DNA of 64,000 nucleotides from Hydrogenophaga sp. GTDB lineage: Bacteria > Pseudomonadota > Gammaproteobacteria > Burkholderiales > Burkholderiaceae_C. Numbering within the stretch: the stretch's first letter is position 1; every line of letters starts with the position of its first letter. Below are positions 24,085 through 48,457 of this stretch, piece after piece. The stretch is taken from positions 31,444 through 95,443 of the forward strand of contig NZ_CBFHOP010000007.1 in the NCBI RefSeq assembly GCF_965657535.1. The letters are read 5' to 3'. A model generated the notes under the pieces. It was not told where the DNA came from. It did not search any database and saw only the letters and a list, made by a program, of their open reading frames with translations. The translations under genes and the position numbers were made by a program.

Positions 24085-24372
24085 AAAGGCTCCTGATTTC
24101 GGTTTTTGGCGTTCGCGGTACTGAAAAACAACGGCCATTCGACCCAACATTCTTGACCATGAAGGCGGCGGAGCGATTCCGCAATAACCCGCGTGCGCCC
24201 CCGCACCCCACCGTTTTCGGCCGTACACCGACGCGCGCCCAAAGCGCACCGCCGGATCGCGGCTTTAGTTGCGCACCCCTACACAGGCTGGCCGCTGCCG
24301 ACTTACATTGACAACACGTCAAGGGCCAACAGCCCTGCTCACCCGTCATCAACGCATCCCTCGGAGTTCACC

Positions 24373-38032: not shown

Positions 38033-38755
38033 TCAGATAAGCCCGATCCAGCAGGCCCGTTGCACGGCGGCTAGCTTGTTGTCGGTCTGGAGCTTGGCCA
38101 TCGCATTGGCCAGGTGGTAGTTCACGGTGCGCTCCGAGCAATCCATACGCAGCGCCGTTTCGCGGGCGGTGAGGCCTTCAAAAGCCAGGTTGAGGCTTTC
38201 CTGCTCGCGCGGGCTCAGGCTCACACGCTGCTCGGCAATGGCCCGGCGCAGCATGGGCCAAATATTGAATGCCGACCAGGCCAGCGTAGCCGCTTCGGCG
38301 CGCCCTGCAAACATGCGCGGGCTGAACAAAAAACACTCAAACGAGCGACCAGCCGGCAGGGTAAAAGCCACCCGAACCAGGGTTTGGTAACCGTGGGCCA
38401 GCCACAGCCGGCGCCAGCGACTGGTCGGGTCCAGGGCCGCCTTGGAAATGTCCTGCCAGGCCACCAACGGCGCATCGCTGTCACGCCAGCTGGCGCCAAA
38501 GTCGCGGCTCTCGGCCAGCGCCTGGGCGGGCCCCAGCAAACGCGGCGGATGCACAGCCAGCACCTCGCGGTCGTCTGCACCGCCCAGCGGGTTGGGCCCC
38601 AGCACCAGCACCGACTCCACCCCCTGGTCGCTCAGGGCGCTCACCCAGTCGGCCAAGACAGCGTCGACACCCACGCTGTCAAAGTTGACAGGCAAAGTCA
38701 TGGCGGCTGTGTGCGGTTGTATGGACAATGCCCAGTTGCTCGATGTGCACAGCAC
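38033..38755 (-). CDS. LuxR-family transcriptional regulator (C-terminal GerE/LuxR HTH; N-terminal ~170 aa of autoinducer-binding-like size)
   Basis: LSPREQESLNLAFEGLTARETALRMDCSERTVNYHLANAMAKLQTDNKLAAV is a LuxR-type HTH. The N-terminal region has scattered W/DP/G features but is not a clean AHL-binding signature. Alternative start at ATG 38701 (MTLPVNF). Confidence 0.8.
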   Translation of the reverse strand: MLCTSSNWALSIQPHTAAMTLPVNFDSVGVDAVLADWVSALSDQGVESVLVLGPNPLGGADDREVLAVHPPRLLGPAQALAESRDFGASWRDSDAPLVAWQDISKAALDPTSRWRRLWLAHGYQTLVRVAFTLPAGRSFECFLFSPRMFAGRAEAATLAWSAFNIWPMLRRAIAEQRVSLSPREQESLNLAFEGLTARETALRMDCSERTVNYHLANAMAKLQTDNKLAAVQRACWIGLI

Positions 38756-38790: not shown

Positions 38791-40113
38791 GTGCCCCTGG
38801 ACCGGTTGAGGTTCCACAGCGCTAAAGCGCGCCTTTGGCGGTGGCTGCTGGACGAAGTCGTTCACGCACCGCTAGAGCCTATTTTGCATCCATCGCGGGA
38901 ACGCCTCCAGTGGCTGGGTACATTCACGCTTTTTGGGCACTTGGCTTTCGCATGGATTTGGGGTGTTGCCATGCCCCAACCCTATGAGAACGTTGCGTTG
39001 CGGTGCGGCATTGCCTGCTTAGGTATTCCTTTGCTACTCAACCCAATCAATCGCGACCTAACATCCCGGCTGACGACGGGTGTCTTCGTTGCCTCCAGCT
39101 GGCTTCAACTTCCACTGTTCTTTTCCTGGATGTACTGGATGAACAATGGGAACGCCGTGTGGTTCGCCAGCATGGCGAGCATGCTGGTCATTTATTACCA
39201 CCTGACCGACTGGCGACTGGCGACACTGGGTGCAGTTGTCGGTATCGTCCTAAGCTATTGGCTCGCCAACCCGGAAGTGGCAACGGCGCACAGCCCCGCG
39301 ACTGGATCGGACCAACTGGTTGTACTGGTATTTGCCTGGGTATCGGCGATATTGCTCGGGGCGTCCAGCGCCAACCTTCGAAGAACCCGCCTTCTGAACA
39401 CACTCAGCACCATGGGGGTCATGGCACACGAACTGCGCACGCCCCTGGCCACAGTGAACCTCATGGGCGATGTGCTCCGCACGCTGGCCAAGCACGACCT
39501 TCCTGAAACCAAACGCAAGAAAATTGACGAGCTGTCCACCCGTCTGCAAAGCCTGGTGCGCAGCATGAACCGCCAGATCGACACCCAGATTTCCAACGCA
39601 CAACTGATGCGCCTGCCCAGCGAACAGGACGCCATCATGGCGGCCGAATTGGTCCAGGAAGTGGTTAGTGGCTACCCCTACCGGTCTACCCGCGAGAGGG
39701 ACTGTGTTCGCATTCACATACAGCAAGACTTCTGTTTTGTAGGCTCGCGCCCGCTGTTTGCCCAGGTGCTGACAAACCTGCTGAAAAATGCCTTGCACTC
39801 GCTGGCCTCTACCAGCATCGCACCCAGCCCAGGCGACCTGCGGCTGGAAGTGGGTCTGCACCATGGTAGGGGCCGCATCGCCGTCTCTGACGACGGCGTG
39901 GGCATTGCCCATGCGGAACAACACCGGATCTTCGAACCCTTCTTTTCCACCCAACGCGGCGCAGGCAGCGGCCTTGGACTCACGTTCTGCAAAAACGCCG
40001 TCGAAGCGGCCCATGGCACGCTCAGCGTGCATTCCGAACCGGGTTTGGGCGCCGTGTTCATGATCGATCTGCCCCTGAATGCTGAGCGCATTTTGACCAC
40101 CACCCCGCTCTGA
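38791..40113 (+). CDS. CqsS/LqsS-like membrane sensor histidine kinase (six TM helices, HisKA + HATPase_c, no receiver domain)
   Basis: About six hydrophobic segments in the first ~200 aa. H-box MGVMAHELRTPLA; N-box LLKNALHS; G-boxes DDGVGI and GSGLGLTFC. The N-terminal block MPQPYENVALRCGIA resembles, from memory, the conserved Y-E-N-L-x-L-R block of CqsS-type receptors. GTG start. Lower GC than the flanks. Confidence 0.8.
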   Translation: MPLDRLRFHSAKARLWRWLLDEVVHAPLEPILHPSRERLQWLGTFTLFGHLAFAWIWGVAMPQPYENVALRCGIACLGIPLLLNPINRDLTSRLTTGVFVASSWLQLPLFFSWMYWMNNGNAVWFASMASMLVIYYHLTDWRLATLGAVVGIVLSYWLANPEVATAHSPATGSDQLVVLVFAWVSAILLGASSANLRRTRLLNTLSTMGVMAHELRTPLATVNLMGDVLRTLAKHDLPETKRKKIDELSTRLQSLVRSMNRQIDTQISNAQLMRLPSEQDAIMAAELVQEVVSGYPYRSTRERDCVRIHIQQDFCFVGSRPLFAQVLTNLLKNALHSLASTSIAPSPGDLRLEVGLHHGRGRIAVSDDGVGIAHAEQHRIFEPFFSTQRGAGSGLGLTFCKNAVEAAHGTLSVHSEPGLGAVFMIDLPLNAERILTTTPL

Positions 40114-40140
40114 AAACCCACGTACCCGGCTTATTTCCTG

Positions 40141-41127
40141 ATGGCACTGACGATTTCTCTTTTTCAACGTCCCGGCAGCATTTTGTTTCTGGACGACGAC
40201 CCGGACTACCTGGACATGCTCGGCATGGTGGTGCCAGAAACGTGGCGCGTTGAGCTGTTTTCACGCCCATCGGGGTTTGCCGAGCGCATGCGTGAAGAGC
40301 CCGCCCGCTGGGAAGCCGATGCCGCTGCCCAGCTGCACATGATCGATCGCTGGCGCCAGGGCCAGCCACTCATGCCGCAAATACTGCACTATTGGGCCAC
40401 CACGCCCTCGCGCTATGCGCTGGCCAAAACCTGCTTGATAGACTACGCCATGCCCGGCACCAATGGCTTGCATGTGCTGGACACCTTGCTCGACTGGCCG
40501 GGCTCAAGGGTCTTGCTCACGGGGCAAGCGGACGAACAAGTGGCGGTCAAGGCCTTCAACAGCGGTCTGATTGACCAGTTTGTTCCCAAGCAAGATCCCG
40601 ACATCACCCGCCACCTACTCAGCGTGTTGCGCAAGCTCTCAATAGCCGCACACCCGAGGCTCAACACGCTGTGGCGGGCGGCGCTGCGGCCCGCTCAGCA
40701 GTCCTTGCTGCAAGTGCCATCGGTGTCGCAGGCGCTGCAAGCCTACACAGAGCAACACTGGGTTGAATACGTGGTGCTCGGTGAGCCTTTTGGCCTGCTT
40801 GGGCTCACCGCCGCAGGCGAATGTCACTGGCTGCAATTAGAGCCTGCCAGCGGCCTGAGCGATCTCGCTGAGCTCGCCGGTTCGGCTGGGCTGGGTTTTG
40901 ACCTGGTGCGCTCGATCGAAAACGGCCAACAACTGGCCGCCATTGAACTGCACCAGCAATTGCACTTGGCAGGGCCGGTGCGCATCGCACCGACCCTACC
41001 CATGGGGAACGACGGCAGCTTGCACGCTGCCTGCTTCGTGCTCGATGCGGCAGATCTGCCGCAGCCCGTTTATGCCTACAGCCACTTCCTGACGGCGCAA
41101 GACGCCCGCATCATCCAGGACAGTTGA
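40141..41127 (+). CDS. LqsR-like receiver-domain protein (no recognisable DNA-binding domain)
   Basis: Receiver hallmarks: ILFLDDD (acidic pocket), LIDYAMPGTNGL (putative phospho-Asp D101), LLTGQAD and KAFNSGLIDQFVPK (conserved Lys). There is a ~50-aa insertion between beta1 and the phospho-Asp, plus a ~190-aa C-terminal domain of unknown function. Size and layout resemble Legionella LqsR. Confidence 0.65.
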   Translation: MALTISLFQRPGSILFLDDDPDYLDMLGMVVPETWRVELFSRPSGFAERMREEPARWEADAAAQLHMIDRWRQGQPLMPQILHYWATTPSRYALAKTCLIDYAMPGTNGLHVLDTLLDWPGSRVLLTGQADEQVAVKAFNSGLIDQFVPKQDPDITRHLLSVLRKLSIAAHPRLNTLWRAALRPAQQSLLQVPSVSQALQAYTEQHWVEYVVLGEPFGLLGLTAAGECHWLQLEPASGLSDLAELAGSAGLGFDLVRSIENGQQLAAIELHQQLHLAGPVRIAPTLPMGNDGSLHAACFVLDAADLPQPVYAYSHFLTAQDARIIQDS

Positions 41128-42361
41128 GCCCTGCGGCCCGGGCGCGCCGCGCAATGGGCCAGTCCCACGGTTTCACCAGTGGCGCAATTTCCCGCGCCAC
41201 AGCTGTGACGTGATCCAGCTCGGCATCTGTCAGTGCCGCGTGAAGGGTCAAGCGAACCATGGTGCGGTTGCGGCTGGTAGCTGGTGCACAAAACACTGCA
41301 CCAAAAACATTTCGCTCTTCCAACAAGTCGCGCAACACCATGGTGTCGGGCTCGGTCCCTGCCTCCAAGGCAATGATCTGTTCGGTACCCTGATGAATGG
41401 GATAGCCAAGATTGGTGAGGGACTCGCGCAACGCGCTGGTGTGTGCATGTAGGTGTTGTCGCTCGGCTTCACTTCTCCTGATGACATCCAGCGTAGCATC
41501 CAAAGCGGCGATCTCGTGGGGGAGCAGGCACGAGCTAAACATATTGGGATAGCTTGTGCTCAACACATAGTTGCGCATGGCCGCTGGCACCGTGAGGAAT
41601 CCAGCCCGCCCAGCGAAGGCTTTGGCCAGGCTGGCAGTGATGAAGTGAACTCGATCACTCAAACCCAATGCGGCACACAAGCCTGCACCCTCTGGGCCAT
41701 GGGTGCCCAAAGAATGGGACTCATCTACAAGAATCATGCAATTGCGATGCTCCGCCACCTCCACAACGGCTTCCAGTGGGCATACAGCGCCCGTGGTGCT
41801 GTAAACCGAATCGATCACCACCAGGCCTGGCCCGTGCCGCTTGATCAAACGATCCAGATGCTGAGAATCGTTGTGGCGGAAGGGATGTGCACAAGCCCCA
41901 GCGCGGCGCGCGCCCTCCCACAACGAAGTGTGAGCCAGACTGTCCATGTAGATGGTGGTCTTGTCGTCAGCAATAGACTGCAGCAGACCCAGGTTGGCTG
42001 CATACCCAGACTGACAGATAAGCCCATCCTCCTTACCGAGAAACCCCGCCAATCTGAGTTCAAGTCTCCTGGCTGGATGCGCATCAAGCAAAAACACGCC
42101 GGACTGGATCACAAACTCTGCATCCGTCTTGATGGCGTTGGTCTGCGCTTGAATAATCTGGGGATGCCCGGTCAGACTTAGATAGTCATTCCCGTTCAGG
42201 CGAACCGCATCACGCCCGGCTTCGCGGCCATGCAGAAGCGAACGGCCACTCCACAATGTGTCCCATCGGGTCGTGAATTCACGCTGAATACGCGCTTGCA
42301 AATGCGCCGACAGTGCAGGATTGATCGGTGTTTTTTCGCGGGTCAGTTCAAGCAGGTCCAT
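41111..42361 (-). CDS. Alpha-hydroxyketone-type autoinducer synthase (CqsA/LqsA family, PLP-dependent, BioF/Kbl superfamily)
   Basis: Collinear by eye with V. cholerae CqsA: NDYLSL, QSGYAANLGLLQSI, SLAHTSLWEGAR, HPFRHNDSQHLDRLIKRHGPGLVVIDSVYSTTGAVCPL, LVDESHSLGTHGPEGAGL, VHFITASLAKAFAGRAG (PLP lysine), FSSCLLP, VFGAVFCAPATSRNRTMVRLTLHA. AAGGAG RBS 7 nt upstream of ATG 42361. Confidence 0.85.
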   Translation of the reverse strand: MDLLELTREKTPINPALSAHLQARIQREFTTRWDTLWSGRSLLHGREAGRDAVRLNGNDYLSLTGHPQIIQAQTNAIKTDAEFVIQSGVFLLDAHPARRLELRLAGFLGKEDGLICQSGYAANLGLLQSIADDKTTIYMDSLAHTSLWEGARRAGACAHPFRHNDSQHLDRLIKRHGPGLVVIDSVYSTTGAVCPLEAVVEVAEHRNCMILVDESHSLGTHGPEGAGLCAALGLSDRVHFITASLAKAFAGRAGFLTVPAAMRNYVLSTSYPNMFSSCLLPHEIAALDATLDVIRRSEAERQHLHAHTSALRESLTNLGYPIHQGTEQIIALEAGTEPDTMVLRDLLEERNVFGAVFCAPATSRNRTMVRLTLHAALTDAELDHVTAVAREIAPLVKPWDWPIARRARAAGLNCPG

Positions 42362-42420
42362 GGAGTTCTCCTTAAGGAAAAGAAAACCCCATTGAAAAAA
42401 GAAATGCGTGAAAAAATGCA

Positions 42421-42448
42421 CGACCCCTGTCAACCTTGACAGGGGTCG
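42421..42448 (-). terminator. Perfect 13-bp-arm hairpin; likely intrinsic terminator of the csoR-pdo operon, lying 60 bp upstream of the synthase gene
   Basis: CGACCCCTGTCAA-CC-TTGACAGGGGTCG. On the minus strand it is followed by TGCATTTTTTCACGCATTTCTTTTTT. Confidence 0.55.
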
Positions 42449-42527: not shown

Positions 42528-43667
42528 TCAGTTTTGGCGCCAGGGAAGCCCGTGGTGGCGCCAGCCACCCTTGTGCCCACGCTGGGCGCTGGCATCGGGG
42601 TCGCCCTCAAAGCCTTCCAGAATGTTGTAGGCTTCCAGCCCCAGCTCGGTTGCCCGCTTGGCGGCAGCGATAGACCGCACCCCACTGCGGCACAACAGCA
42701 CCAGCTTTTTCCCGCCGGCGGCGGCTTGGCGCGCCGCGTCGTCGAACTGCGGGTTCAGGGCCATGCCGGGCCACTGCTTCCAGGCCACCGGCACGGCGCC
42801 CGGCACAAAACCGACCCACTCGCGCTCGGCATCGGTTCGCACATCTACCAGCACCGCTTCGCCCGATTGCTTCCATTGCCAGGCCAGCTGGGGCGACACA
42901 TCGCCAGCATACGAACCCGCGTGGGCGCCAGACGCCGGGCGCGGCTGCATCAGCAAGGCGCCGTCGGCGTCGTGCCGGATGCCGGACGTGAGGTTGGCCG
43001 GCACCGCTTCGTCAATGCGGCGGGGCTTGGGCAGACCCAGCGCGTCCATGATGGCCACAAACTCGGCCTCGGTCTTGCCGGCCACGCGGGCGTTACTGGC
43101 CTTTTCCTGCCCAATGGTGGAGTGCGTGCGGCCCTGGTAGTCATGCCCTGGCCAGACCGTGGTGGCGTCCGGCAGCGCAAACAGCACCGCCGTAAGGCTT
43201 TGGTACAGGTCGTGGGCGCTGCCCGACTGGAAATCGGTGCGGCCGCAACCGTTGATGAGCAAGGTGTCGCCGGTGAACACATGGCCCCCTTCGGGGGTTT
43301 GCCAGACAAAGCTCATGCTGCCGGCGGTGTGGCCGGGCGTGTGCAGGGCGCTCAGCGTCTGGTCCCCAAAGCGCAAGGTGTCGCCGTGTTGCAGCTGCAC
43401 ACCCGCCGTGCCAATACCGCACCCCACAGGCGCCGCCGTTTTGGCACCCGCCAGCTCGGCCAGCTTGCCCGCGCTGGTGATGTGGTCGGCGTGGGCGTGC
43501 GTTTCCACCGCCCAGACCAGCTTGAGCCCATATTCGCGCAGCATGGCCAGGTCGCGCTCAAGCTGCTCGTCCACCGGGTCGATGATGATCGCGTCGCGAG
43601 TGGCCTGGTCAAACAGCACATAGGTGTAGGTGCTGGAGGCGGGGTCGAAAAGCTGGATGGGGTTCAT
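42528..43667 (-). CDS. Persulfide dioxygenase (ETHE1-like MBL fold) fused to a rhodanese domain
   Basis: MBL motif ETHAHADH, HTPGHTAGS, FTGDTLL, RTDF and WPGHDY form the ETHE1/PDO pattern. The C-terminal rhodanese has VLVDVRTDAEREW and the active-site loop LLCRSGVRS. GGAG RBS upstream of ATG 43667. Confidence 0.85.
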   Translation of the reverse strand: MNPIQLFDPASSTYTYVLFDQATRDAIIIDPVDEQLERDLAMLREYGLKLVWAVETHAHADHITSAGKLAELAGAKTAAPVGCGIGTAGVQLQHGDTLRFGDQTLSALHTPGHTAGSMSFVWQTPEGGHVFTGDTLLINGCGRTDFQSGSAHDLYQSLTAVLFALPDATTVWPGHDYQGRTHSTIGQEKASNARVAGKTEAEFVAIMDALGLPKPRRIDEAVPANLTSGIRHDADGALLMQPRPASGAHAGSYAGDVSPQLAWQWKQSGEAVLVDVRTDAEREWVGFVPGAVPVAWKQWPGMALNPQFDDAARQAAAGGKKLVLLCRSGVRSIAAAKRATELGLEAYNILEGFEGDPDASAQRGHKGGWRHHGLPWRQN

Positions 43668-43707
43668 GGCGGCTCCGTCAAAGTCTCGGTTAAAGCCCAG
43701 TGCAGGC

Positions 43708-43953
43708 TCAGGAAAAGCGGGCGAGCATATCGGCCACATCATCGGGCGGCACGTCGCCTTGCGCAATGACGCAGCCCACCATGGTGAAAAAGGTTTTGTC
43801 GAGTGCCTTGCGGGCTGCGGCCAGCTGCTGGGCCACTTTCTCGCAGTCGGCATCGGTCTCGATCAACTTCTGGATACCGCGCAACTGCCCCTCAACACGC
43901 TTAAGGCGCAGCACCAGGGCACGTTTGCGTTCGGGGTCGTGTACGGTGGTCAT
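43708..43953 (-). CDS. CsoR/RcnR-family (DUF156) transcriptional repressor, two-Cys/no-His variant (CstR-like candidate)
   Basis: LRLKRVEGQLRGIQKLIE...DC.KV.QQL.A...AL is the DUF156 signature. Cys37 and Cys61 are the only candidate ligand/sensor residues, and the only His is H5. Confidence 0.85.
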   Translation of the reverse strand: MTTVHDPERKRALVLRLKRVEGQLRGIQKLIETDADCEKVAQQLAAARKALDKTFFTMVGCVIAQGDVPPDDVADMLARFS

Positions 43954-45163: not shown

Positions 45164-48100
45164 ATGAGCAACCTGTCCGCCGAATACCAGGCCTTGGCCA
45201 ACTACCGCCCCACCAACAAGGTGCGCTTTGTCACCGCAGCCAGCCTGTTTGACGGCCACGACGCGGCCATCAACATCATGCGGCGCATTTTGCAAGGCAT
45301 GGGCGCCGAGGTGATCCACCTGGGGCACAACCGCTCGGTGGACGAGGTGGTGACGGCCGCACTGCAGGAAGACGCCCAGGGCATTGCCATCAGCTCCTAC
45401 CAGGGCGGCCATGTGGAGTATTTCAAGTACATGGTGGACCTGCTCAAGAGCCGGGGCGGCGAGCACATCCAGGTGTTTGGCGGCGGCGGCGGCGTGATCG
45501 TGCCCGACGAAATCCGCGAGCTGCAGGCCTACGGCGTAGCCCGCATTTACAGCCCCGAAGACGGCCAGAAAATGGGCCTGGCCGGCATGATTGGCGAAAT
45601 GGTGATGCGTTGCGACCAAGACATCAGCGCTTTCGCCCCGACCGAGACCTGCGCCATTGAAGGCCAGACCGAAATGCATTGGCGCGCCCTGGCGCAGCTG
45701 ATCACAGCGCTGGAGAACGACAAAGCCGACGTCGCCCTGGTGCAGCGCATCCGCGCCGAAGCGGCCACCAAAAAAGTGCCCGTGCTGGGCATCACCGGCA
45801 CCGGCGGCGCCGGCAAGTCCAGCCTGACGGACGAACTCATTCGCCGCCTGCGGCTGGACCAGGACGACGCGTTGCGCGTGGCGGTCATTTCCATCGACCC
45901 CAGCCGCCGCAAGAGCGGTGGCGCGTTGCTGGGCGACCGCATCCGCATGAACGCCATTGCGCCTTGGCAAAAAGGCCAACGTGTCTTCATGCGCTCACTG
46001 GCCACACGCGACTTTGGCAGCGAGATCAGCGCCGCCCTGCCCGACGTGATCGCCGCCTGCAAGGTCTCGGGTTTTGACGTGATCGTGGTGGAAACCTCGG
46101 GCATTGGCCAGGGCGACGCGGCCATCGTGCCGCATGTGGACGTGCCCATGTACGTGATGACGCCCGAGTTTGGCGCCGCCAGCCAGCTCGAGAAAATCGA
46201 CATGCTCGACTTCGCCGAGTTCGTGGCCATCAACAAGTTTGACCGCAAGGGCGCCAGCGACGCGCTGCGCGACGTGGCCAAGCAGGTGCAGCGCAACAAG
46301 GAAGCCTGGACCACGCCCACCGAGCAGATGCCGGTGTTTGGCACCATGGCCGCACGCTTCAACGACGACGGCGTGACCGCGCTGTACCAGGCGCTCAAAA
46401 CGCGCCTGGGTGCGCTGGGCCTGCCACTGACCGAAGGCCGCCTGCCGCGGGTGGCGGTGCGCCACAGCACCAACCAGACCCCCATCGTGCCGGGCGCGCG
46501 CACGCGCTACCTGGCCGAAATTTCTGACACCGTGCGCGGCTACAAAAAGCGCGCCCGCGAGCAAGCCCGCCTGGCCCGCGAAATCCAGCAGCTCAACGCC
46601 AGCGCGCAGATGCTTCGGGTGGAAAAGCCCACCCGGGCCAAAGCCGCCGAGGCAGTGATCGACCTGGCCCAACAGCGCGAACTCGACCAGGACCCGGCTG
46701 CCCGCAAGCTGCTGACGCAATGGCCCGACATGCAAAAAGCCTACGCGGGCGACGAGTACGTGGTGAAGATCCGCGACAAGGAAATCCGCACGGCACTCAC
46801 CACCAAGAGCCTTTCGGGCACCACCATCCGCAAGGTGGCGCTGCCCACGTTTGAGGACCATGGCGAAATCTTGAAGTGGCTGATGCTGGACAACGTGCCC
46901 GGCAGCTTCCCCTACACCGCCGGCACCTTCGCCTTCAAGCGCGAGGGCGAAGACCCGACCCGCATGTTTGCCGGCGAAGGCGATCCGTTTCGCACCAACC
47001 GCCGCTTCAAGCTGCTCAGCGCGGGCACACCCGCCAAGCGCCTGAGCACCGCGTTTGACTCGGTCACGCTCTACGGTAACGACCCCGATCCGCGCCCGGA
47101 CATTTACGGCAAGGTCGGCAACTCGGGCGTGAGCATTGCCACGCTAGACGACATGAAGGTGCTCTACGGCGGCTTCGACCTGTGCCACCCGGCCACCTCC
47201 GTGTCGATGACGATCAACGGCCCCGCCCCCAGCATTCTGGCGATGTTCATGAACACCGCCATCGACCAGAACCTGGAGAAATTCAAAGCCGACAATGGCC
47301 GCGACCCGACCGACACCGAAGCCCAGAAAATCCGCGAATGGGTGCTGGCCAACGTGCGTGGCACGGTGCAGGCCGACATCCTGAAAGAAGACCAGGGCCA
47401 GAACACCTGCATCTTCAGCACCGAGTTTTCGCTCAAGGTGATGGGCGACATTGCCGAGTATTTCGTGCACCACGACGTGCGCAACTTCTACTCGGTCAGC
47501 ATCTCGGGCTACCACATCGCCGAAGCCGGCGCCAACCCGATCAGCCAGCTGGCGTTCACGCTGTCCAACGGCTTCACGTTTGTCGAAGCGTATCTCGCGC
47601 GCGGCATGCACATCGACGACTTCGCGCCCAATTTGTCGTTCTTCTTCAGCAACGGCATGGACCCGGAATACACCGTGCTGGGCCGCGTGGCGCGCCGCAT
47701 CTGGGCGGTGGCCATGCGCGACCGCTACGGCGCCAACGAGCGCAGCCAGAAGCTGAAATACCACGTGCAGACCAGCGGGCGCAGCCTGCACGCGCAAGAA
47801 ATTCAGTTCAACGACATCCGCACCACGCTGCAGGCGCTGATTGCCATTTACGACAACTGCAACAGCCTGCACACCAACGCGTTTGACGAAGCCATCACCA
47901 CGCCCACCGAAGAGTCGGTGCGCCGGGCCATGGCGATCCAGCTCATCATCAACCGGGAGTGGGGCCTGGCCAAAAACGAAAACCCGAACCAGGGCGCCTT
48001 CATCATCGACGACCTCACCGAGCTGGTGGAAGAAGCGGTGCTGGCCGAGTTCGAAAAAATCGCCGAACGCGGTGGCGTGCTGGGCGCCATGGAAACCGGT

Positions 48101-48457
48101 TACCAGCGCGGCAAGATCCAGGACGAGTCGATGCACTACGAAATGCTCAAGCACACCGGCGAATACCCGATCGTGGGCGTGAACACCTTCCGCAACCCGC
48201 ACGGCGACGCGGTGATGGACAAGCTGGAGCTGGCCCGCTCCACCGAAGAAGAAAAACAAAGCCAACTGGAACGGCTGGCCGACTTCCACACCCGCCATGC
48301 GGCGCAAGCCCCAGCCATGCTCCAGCGCCTGCAGCAGGCGGTGATTGAGAACAAGAACGTGTTCGAGGTGCTGATGGACGCGGTGCGCTGCTGCTCACTG
48401 GGCCAGATCACCAGCGCGCTGTTTGAGGTGGGCGGGCAGTACCGGCGCAATATGTGA
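45164..48457 (+). CDS. icmF: Fused isobutyryl-CoA mutase IcmF (B12-binding domain + MeaB-like G-protein + mutase TIM barrel), 1097 aa
   Basis: N-terminal B12 domain ([10 protein letters not shown]), P-loop [13 protein letters not shown] with NKFD of the MeaB-like GTPase, then the methylmalonyl-CoA-mutase-like catalytic domain ([22 protein letters not shown]). Confidence 0.9.

Follow-up and report, generated by a model that had tools for sequence, protein, structure and literature searches.

Introduction

Clusters that join lqsA to lqsS, and in some cases to lqsR, have been reviewed for Polaromonas, Burkholderia xenovorans, Ralstonia eutropha and Nitrococcus (PMC3376566), and a survey of lqs clusters across the Proteobacteria, Hydrogenophaga included, finds orthologues of LqsR in 310 representative genomes, of which 206 are betaproteobacterial, and studies the LqsR-family protein PhcX in Ralstonia (PMC10653808). 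For the jqsA/jqsS/jqsR genes of Janthinobacterium, deletion mutants, cross-complementation with cqsA/lqsA, RNA-seq regulons and a promoter motif have been reported (PMC3566124, PMC5080296). Here we compare with these systems a cluster of the same kind, a predicted alpha-hydroxyketone (AHK) quorum-sensing module, which lies in a 64-kb stretch of Hydrogenophaga sp. DNA (64,000 nucleotides of contig NZ_CBFHOP010000007.1, hereafter the window). A preliminary description of this locus held that such systems had been characterised experimentally only in Vibrio and Legionella, a view that the studies just cited on the Janthinobacterium system (JQS) and on PhcX make outdated.

As three genes, encoding a synthase, a sensor kinase and a receiver protein, the cluster is ordinary: it is a real AHK cell-to-cell signalling module of the Legionella Lqs type, and it is not new, being annotated automatically in Hydrogenophaga, surveyed across Betaproteobacteria, and represented by a characterised homologous system in Janthinobacterium. 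Close homologues already bear the specific names at NCBI and JGI, 'alpha-hydroxyketone-type quorum-sensing autoinducer synthase' being the one that NCBI uses in Hydrogenophaga. The cluster had also been called complete within 38791..42361, which proved too narrow, as a fourth gene and two operator-like sites lie at or just outside these limits. We propose, with a probability of roughly 0.65, that the locus is a four-gene Lqs-type AHK module in which a protein with a LuxR-type fold would be a dedicated regulator acting at two palindromic boxes. No description of a LuxR-type gene in the lqs clusters of Polaromonas or Hydrogenophaga was found in the literature searched, and the regulator with its two sites is probably an undescribed add-on to a known system. 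The predicted features are, in order along the window:

38033..38701, minus strand: LuxR-receptor-fold regulator gene, 222 aa from a conserved ATG, divergent from the kinase gene
38675..38692: box B, palindrome GCTGTCAAAGTTGACAGG, with about 107 bp between its centre and the kinase GTG downstream
38724..38729, plus strand: GACAAT, a -10-like hexamer 31 nt downstream of box B, towards the kinase-receiver operon
38791..40113, plus strand: LqsS-type sensor histidine kinase gene, 440 aa, GTG start
40141..41127, plus strand: LqsR-type response regulator gene, 328 aa
41111..42361, minus strand: LqsA/CqsA-type synthase gene, 416 aa counted from the ATG
42391..42396, minus strand: TTCAAT, a -10-like hexamer that follows box A after 29 nt and precedes the synthase ATG by about 30 nt
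42426..42443: box A (18-bp core), perfect palindrome CCTGTCAA-GG-TTGACAGG, beginning 81 nt upstream of the synthase ATG

Results

A predicted LuxR-fold regulator and two putative operators

The mechanical open reading frame (ORF) of the fourth gene continues to a GTG at 38755, beyond the conserved ATG from which we count its product. At its C-terminal end, the 222-aa form carries a helix-turn-helix (HTH) at residues 161-215 that is recognised by Pfam GerE (PF00196) at 4.5e-14, and its best sequence matches in the PDB are the HTH domains of RhlR and QscR. An AlphaFold2 (AF2) model made with 30 homologues reached a predicted local distance difference test score (pLDDT) of 84.9, with the first eight residues disordered. 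When this model was compared with the PDB by Foldseek, full-length TraR, QscR, RhlR, LasR, SdiA and CviR came out on top (E 1e-9 to 1e-6). VqmA-DPO structures were also among the matches, as were LasR ligand-binding domains and GAF domains alone (E of about 2e-3), with target-normalised TM-scores of 0.48-0.52 for the LasR ligand-binding domains. As such, the modelled protein has the two-domain receptor fold of LuxR-type proteins. A LuxI-type synthase gene is present neither in the cluster nor in its immediate flanks.

The two boxes share the form CCTGTCA-N4-TGACAGG. Box A, which can also be written CCCCTGTCAA-GG-TTGACAGGGG, extends with its flanks to 22 bp (CCCCTGTCAAGGTTGACAGGGG), while box B overlaps codons 4-9 (PVNFDS) of the LuxR-type gene itself. 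Allowing up to two mismatches, the window holds exactly two matches to this form, boxes A and B, against 0.14 expected in 64 kb, and in 1.5 Mb of related loci matches with at most one mismatch occur at these two positions only. The lux box of V. fischeri has the sequence ACCTGTAGGATCGTACAGGT (PMC4444344), and the core CCTGT-N8-ACAGG is common to it and to our boxes. From sequence, we regard both boxes as putative lux-box-type operators at conserved positions.

Box A is present in every locus that carries the LuxR-type gene and for which the region upstream of the synthase is available; across the loci of Hydrogenophaga, Polaromonas, Ramlibacter, Variovorax and Acidovorax the arms never change and the four central nucleotides vary freely. 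A TTCAAT, TCCAAT or TTCAAA hexamer follows 29-31 nt past box A in 23 of 24 loci. Box B, at up to two mismatches, occupies the same position in 22 of the 24 loci with all four genes and in two remnant loci (L066 and L081; L-numbers denote related loci fetched for comparison), and GACAAT lies 30-32 nt beyond it in 14 of the 23 non-redundant loci scanned, and farther away in Ramlibacter-type loci; taken over the loci, the distance is about 30-40 nt. Since box B lies in a coding sequence, its codons can be compared with others of the same gene: the third positions of CCT, AAC, TTT and GAC are 100% conserved, whereas those of codons 20-40 are mostly 38-76% conserved, and at most 86%. These four codon choices are unusual for a genome of 65% G+C. 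Frozen third positions, in a part of the protein that is predicted to be disordered, argue that box B is conserved at the level of the DNA.

The full four-gene arrangement was found in 24 loci, from genomes labelled Hydrogenophaga, Polaromonas, Ramlibacter, Variovorax and Acidovorax. Polaromonas eurypsychrophila has different outer flanks and retains the LuxR-type gene and both boxes, and reverse look-ups that started from LuxR-type homologues led to the same cluster in three of three cases. Writing S, R and A for the kinase, receiver and synthase genes, only one of the fetched S-R-A loci of the Comamonadaceae type is without the LuxR-fold gene, namely L061, a Burkholderiaceae metagenome-assembled genome (MAG), and no box is found anywhere in its 15 kb. 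Nor do the Legionella, Nitrococcus, Massilia and gammaproteobacterial loci fetched contain the LuxR-type gene, and in the first three groups the boxes are missing too. Conversely, L066 and L081 have lost kinase and synthase and retain the regulator, box B and the receiver, and in a third remnant, L059, the LuxR-fold and receiver genes stand side by side with kinase and synthase gone. L081 still adjoins a pantothenate kinase gene, as the window does. This suggests that receivers of the LqsR family are functionally paired with the LuxR-fold protein, in a pairing that outlasts the loss of synthase and kinase.

The three Lqs proteins

The three Lqs genes were recovered with the positions, strands and lengths that the preliminary description had given, and what it had read by eye in each of their products is borne out: a synthase collinear with CqsA, a kinase resembling LqsS in having about six transmembrane (TM) helices with short loops, an H-box MAHELRTPL and no receiver domain, and an LqsR-like receiver with an insertion before its phospho-accepting aspartate and a C-terminal domain that has no HTH.

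The synthase scores 567.9 bits against the NCBIfam equivalog model NF005526 ('alpha-hydroxyketone-type quorum-sensing autoinducer synthase'), of which the cut-off is 428. In the PDB, V. cholerae CqsA is its first match (E 5e-101, 342 bits, residues 14-388), and the two enzymes are 44.6% identical across 377 aa; identity to homologues amounts to 40-42% in Legionella, 50% in Nitrococcus and 47-48% in Massilia. A residue-level alignment with CqsA contains the blocks HPF.HN, LVDESHSLGTHGP.GAGL, VHF.TASLAK and VFG.VFC.PATS that had been quoted as shared, and places the predicted pyridoxal-phosphate (PLP) lysine, K247 in TASLAK, on the corresponding lysine of CqsA. By these sequence comparisons the 416-aa PLP enzyme is an LqsA/CqsA orthologue, and as such a predicted member of the AHK autoinducer synthase family.

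In the kinase, Pfam recognises HisKA at residues 210-259 and HATPase_c at 322-430, and the H-box contains the predicted phospho-accepting histidine H213. Hydropathy, together with reading of the sequence, places the helices within residues 40-197 of a sensor domain that comprises residues 1-200. A receiver domain is not found by Pfam, and the protein stops 10 residues past HATPase_c, which assigns it to the LqsS subtype rather than to the CqsS hybrids. Public gene calls give the kinase and its homologues three different starts, of 380, 410 and about 440 aa; the first 31 residues are kept in Hydrogenophaga homologues, which speaks for the long form with the GTG start. A second, LqsT-like paralogous kinase in Hydrogenophaga, suggested by two hits on a single contig, was discarded, the two being the same gene called from alternative starts (99.8% identical).

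Neither NCBIfam nor Pfam offers a curated model that matches residues 1-200/210 of the kinase, even at E<=10, and a profile of our own was therefore built, from 31 kinases of synthase-containing loci outside Legionella. This profile matches the kinases adjoining Legionella lqsR over nearly the whole domain (E 1e-30 to 1e-38) and V. cholerae CqsS at 3.6e-36, so that the N-terminal domain, whose failure to align with these receptors would have spoken against an Lqs-type kinase, does align with both. It has no match in 18 kinases that adjoin orphan LqsR-like genes. The CqsS sequence was taken from a metagenome contig, where it is the 686-aa ORF that converges with a CqsA showing 100% identity to that of V. 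cholerae; Response_reg is found at residues 570-682 of this ORF, and the kinases of Legionella, Massilia and the window lack this domain. By BLASTP, the window kinase is 27% identical to CqsS over 412 aa (8e-39) and 27% identical to L. shakespearei LqsS over 437 aa (7e-29), with collinearity in both alignments from TM1 as far as the ATPase. The window kinase and the CqsS/LqsS sensor domains have the motifs PQ.YEN..LR and LP.FF in common. The window kinase also keeps W104, S107 and F162 of CqsS, which we take to be ligand-specificity positions (Ng et al. 2010). CqsS C170 is the chain-length position (PMC3285556), and it aligns to G190 by BLASTP and to L189 in the profile alignment; as the two alignments disagree by one residue, a reading of the signal's chain length from this position was dropped. 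In a search of 1.84 billion representative proteins, the sensor domain was found in 198 clusters at E<=1e-3, mostly of 420-460 aa and with a few hybrids of 600-930 aa; these clusters carried no names, so CqsS and LqsS were located through synteny instead. Taken together, the sequence of the 440-aa kinase is that of a non-hybrid, LqsS-type protein with a predicted CqsS/LqsS sensor domain.

The receiver protein has an acidic pocket at D18-D20, and further D101 within a DYAMPG block, T127 and K150. The roughly 80 residues that separate the pocket from D101 make the insertion real. Its best PDB match is 6sy9, entitled 'Response regulator' (3.3e-14, residues 82-174); since a 93-residue fragment of 6sy9 is 76-94% identical to the Legionella loci, we identify this structure as LqsR, an identity taken from sequence, as our literature search found no text naming 6SY9 as such. 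The DYAMPG block that holds D101 is unchanged in the Legionella sequence. When a profile was made of the Comamonadaceae receivers, its alignment with the proteins from Legionella covered the receiver domain and went on for about 100 residues of the C-terminal domain, reaching approximately residues 260-300 of the window protein, and no HTH or any other Pfam domain is recognised in the C-terminal half. The 328-aa protein is thus by sequence an LqsR-family receiver with an insertion, a predicted phospho-acceptor at D101, and a C-terminal domain predicted not to bind DNA.

LqsR-like genes are carried by at least 473 species-level genomes. Many of those in loci L023-L054, from gammaproteobacterial and other MAGs, stand beside a convergent kinase that has no CqsS/LqsS sensor domain, and a synthase is missing from their neighbourhood. 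The family of LqsR-like receivers is much broader than AHK signalling.

Genomic setting

The receiver and synthase genes converge with an overlap of 17 bp, and an identical 6.5-kb contig is contained in a public read-set assembly. Database look-ups return Hydrogenophaga species as the nearest named homologues of all cluster proteins, with identities of 84-85% for the synthase, about 74% for the kinase and up to 91% for the LuxR-type protein. The wider order of PPK2, metallo-beta-lactamase (MBL)-rhodanese, cluster, pantothenate kinase, wax-ester synthase and ACBP is shared with a 4.8-Mb Hydrogenophaga contig. Homology and gene order thus place the DNA in Hydrogenophaga or very near it among the Comamonadaceae. 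No paralogues of the four cluster genes are found within the 64-kb window. In G+C content, the synthase (57.6%), kinase (59.0%) and receiver (61.7%) genes all lie below the LuxR-type gene (65.8%) and the 10-kb flanks (65%), a difference in composition that would agree with separate histories of the regulator and of the three Lqs genes.

Upstream of the synthase gene, 42528..43953 on the minus strand encodes an MBL-fold and rhodanese protein, of 379 aa as called in relatives, which is preceded by a gene for a small CsoR/CstR-like repressor (PF02583). This pair has the appearance of a persulfide/sulfide module; in Hydrogenophaga it is found in synteny with the cluster, to which it is unrelated. 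Farther on, 45164..48457 on the plus strand encodes an IcmF-like 1097-aa fusion of a B12-binding domain, a MeaB-like GTPase and methylmalonyl-CoA mutase, which is also present in the Hydrogenophaga locus L003.

Discussion

How, then, might the four genes work together? By analogy with Legionella and Vibrio, the synthase would make a signal of the 3-hydroxy- or 3-amino-alkan-4-one type, which the kinase would detect in the membrane, and the kinase would then set the phosphorylation state of D101 in the receiver. Judging by its fold, its motif and its co-occurrence with the other genes, the LuxR-fold protein would be the DNA-binding regulator of the cluster, and it most likely binds both palindromes as a dimer, each about 30 nt upstream of a -10-like hexamer. 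Binding at boxes A and B would put signal production and signal reception in a single transcriptional feedback loop, and with box B inside the first ten codons of its own gene the regulator is probably autoregulated as well. Our preferred guess is that the signal reaches the LuxR-type protein through the LqsR-type protein. Such control is favoured because the receiver has no DNA-binding domain of its own, and because the remnant loci still hold it next to the regulator. A broader version of this idea, in which the AHK pathway of the Comamonadaceae is wired to a LuxR fold orphaned in sequence, either with LqsR output through protein-protein control or with the first cytoplasmic AHK-type receptor, is one that we put forward tentatively, and the odds are rather against it.

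Several observations weigh against our proposal. For the N-terminal 160 or so residues of the LuxR-type protein, no Pfam model, Autoind_bind included, gives a match at E<=10, and a PDB profile search with the N-terminal domain likewise has none at E<=10. In two loci, L055 and L070, box B was not found within two mismatches. The gene and its boxes are known from one family, the Comamonadaceae, so that their co-occurrence must partly reflect shared ancestry. Box A with the run of T residues behind it appears terminator-like in a scan of the window, and would fit an intrinsic terminator of the upstream MBL-rhodanese gene; in most other loci the T-run is not kept, and a terminator role of box A is possible as a secondary one, in this window only. 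Finally, whether the protein activates or represses at the boxes is a guess.

A serious rival is direct ligand binding, with the LuxR-type protein as a cytoplasmic receptor of the module's own AHK or of a foreign signal such as an acyl-homoserine lactone (AHL), which would drive both boxes in parallel to the kinase-receiver pair. In fold, the protein matches ligand-binding LuxR receptors over its whole length, the N-terminal domain being no exception, its operator has the layout of a lux box, and LuxR-fold receptors for ligands other than AHLs do exist, VqmA-DPO being among the fold matches. However, the missing Autoind_bind signature is our reason for not classing the protein among the AHL receptors, and in L066 and L081 the regulator stays with the receiver gene after synthase and kinase have been lost, which suggests that it is tied to the receiver and not to the signal. 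All in all we consider such a receptor unlikely. A more sceptical explanation, to which we give lower odds still, would make the LuxR-type gene a mere syntenic neighbour and the palindromes terminators, repeats or the sites of another factor, leaving the three Lqs genes as the unit. While the terminator-like appearance of box A in the window and the equally syntenic pantothenate kinase gene in Hydrogenophaga would suit it, this explanation has to contend with the same palindrome lying inside the regulator's coding sequence with its synonymous sites frozen, at both sites at a fixed distance to a conserved -10-like hexamer. Moreover, the only S-R-A locus that is without the gene is also without the boxes, Polaromonas keeps gene and boxes despite its different outer flanks, and no further copies at up to one mismatch turn up in the 1.5 Mb of related loci.

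As for the enzyme, one could object that it is a housekeeping acyltransferase of the BioF/Kbl type, given that it shares the alpha-oxoamine synthase superfamily (Pfam Aminotran_1_2) with those enzymes and gives sub-threshold matches to the BioF, Kbl, ALAS and SPT models. These sister models nevertheless stay far below their cut-offs (BioF 232.8 against 426, Kbl 192 against 460, ALAS 179.5 against 338.6, SPT at most 207 against at least 500), whereas the AHK synthase model exceeds its own. In the PDB, Kbl ranks second with 138 bits (4e-39), and no structure other than CqsA scores higher than that. A clustering of the synthase with BioF/Kbl, which had been named as the outcome that would speak against it, is by model and PDB scores clearly not what we see, and in every locus examined the gene is linked to one for a CqsS/LqsS-type kinase. 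The housekeeping role is thus hardly credible.

At the least, the LuxR-fold regulator and its two sites provide a testable model of how an Lqs-type system could control transcription, including that of its own signal genes. If this were confirmed, the regulon of these bacteria, which are widespread in fresh water and soil, could be read directly from their genomes by means of the box sequence. If, furthermore, the wiring of AHK signalling to a LuxR fold is true, the circuit would merge the two main designs of Gram-negative quorum sensing, and would offer a route to how LqsR-type proteins without a DNA-binding domain alter gene expression.

Comparison with known systems

The Lqs system of Legionella (LAI-1) shares with the window its three protein families, a non-hybrid kinase, and a receiver with an insertion and without an HTH. 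The preliminary description had taken the gene order to differ from that of Legionella, but in three Legionella loci (L007, from Legionella shakespearei, L008 and L010) and in Nitrococcus (L020) it is S-> R-> <-A, or by position A-R-(insert)-S, and hence like that of the window. Unlike in some Legionella, however, no gene is inserted between S and R in the window. In L. pneumophila this insert is hdeD (PMC3376566). That of L. shakespearei (8288..9571 in L007) encodes a 427-aa protein with a weak lactonase beta-propeller match and is not hdeD, which means that the insert at the kinase-lqsR position varies among Legionella species. The Legionella synthases are, furthermore, only 40-42% identical to that of the window, and their loci have neither LuxR-type gene nor boxes.

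Compared with CqsA/CqsS of V. cholerae (CAI-1), the window has a homologous synthase and a homologous six-TM sensor domain. CqsS is unlike the window kinase in being a 686-aa hybrid with a C-terminal receiver, and it signals via LuxU and LuxO. To our knowledge, the Vibrio CqsA/CqsS system has no LqsR-type protein and no LuxR-fold neighbour.

With the JQS system of Janthinobacterium and Duganella (JAI-1), the window has in common a betaproteobacterial AHK synthase, a non-hybrid kinase and an LqsR-type regulator. The related Massilia loci are ordered <-A S-> R->, whereas the window synthase converges on the receiver, and they have no LuxR-type gene and no CCTGTCA-N4-TGACAGG box. Conversely, the JQS promoter motif TTGAN6/7TCAA does not occur at our cluster, its sole match in the window being a chance-level one at 24308.

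The LuxR-type receptors TraR, LasR, RhlR, QscR and SdiA resemble the fourth protein in its predicted two-domain fold, its C-terminal GerE HTH and its lux-box-like palindrome. They differ in that the N-terminal domain of the window protein is not recognisable by sequence as one that binds autoinducers and the cluster has no LuxI gene, and in that its apparent targets in the window are AHK-type signalling genes. Lastly, PhcX of Ralstonia solanacearum belongs to the same receiver family and works without an AHK synthase (PMC10653808), which may be compared with the remnants L059, L066 and L081. PhcX is located beside phc genes, whereas the receiver of the window sits in an intact lqs-type cluster, paired with a LuxR-fold gene.

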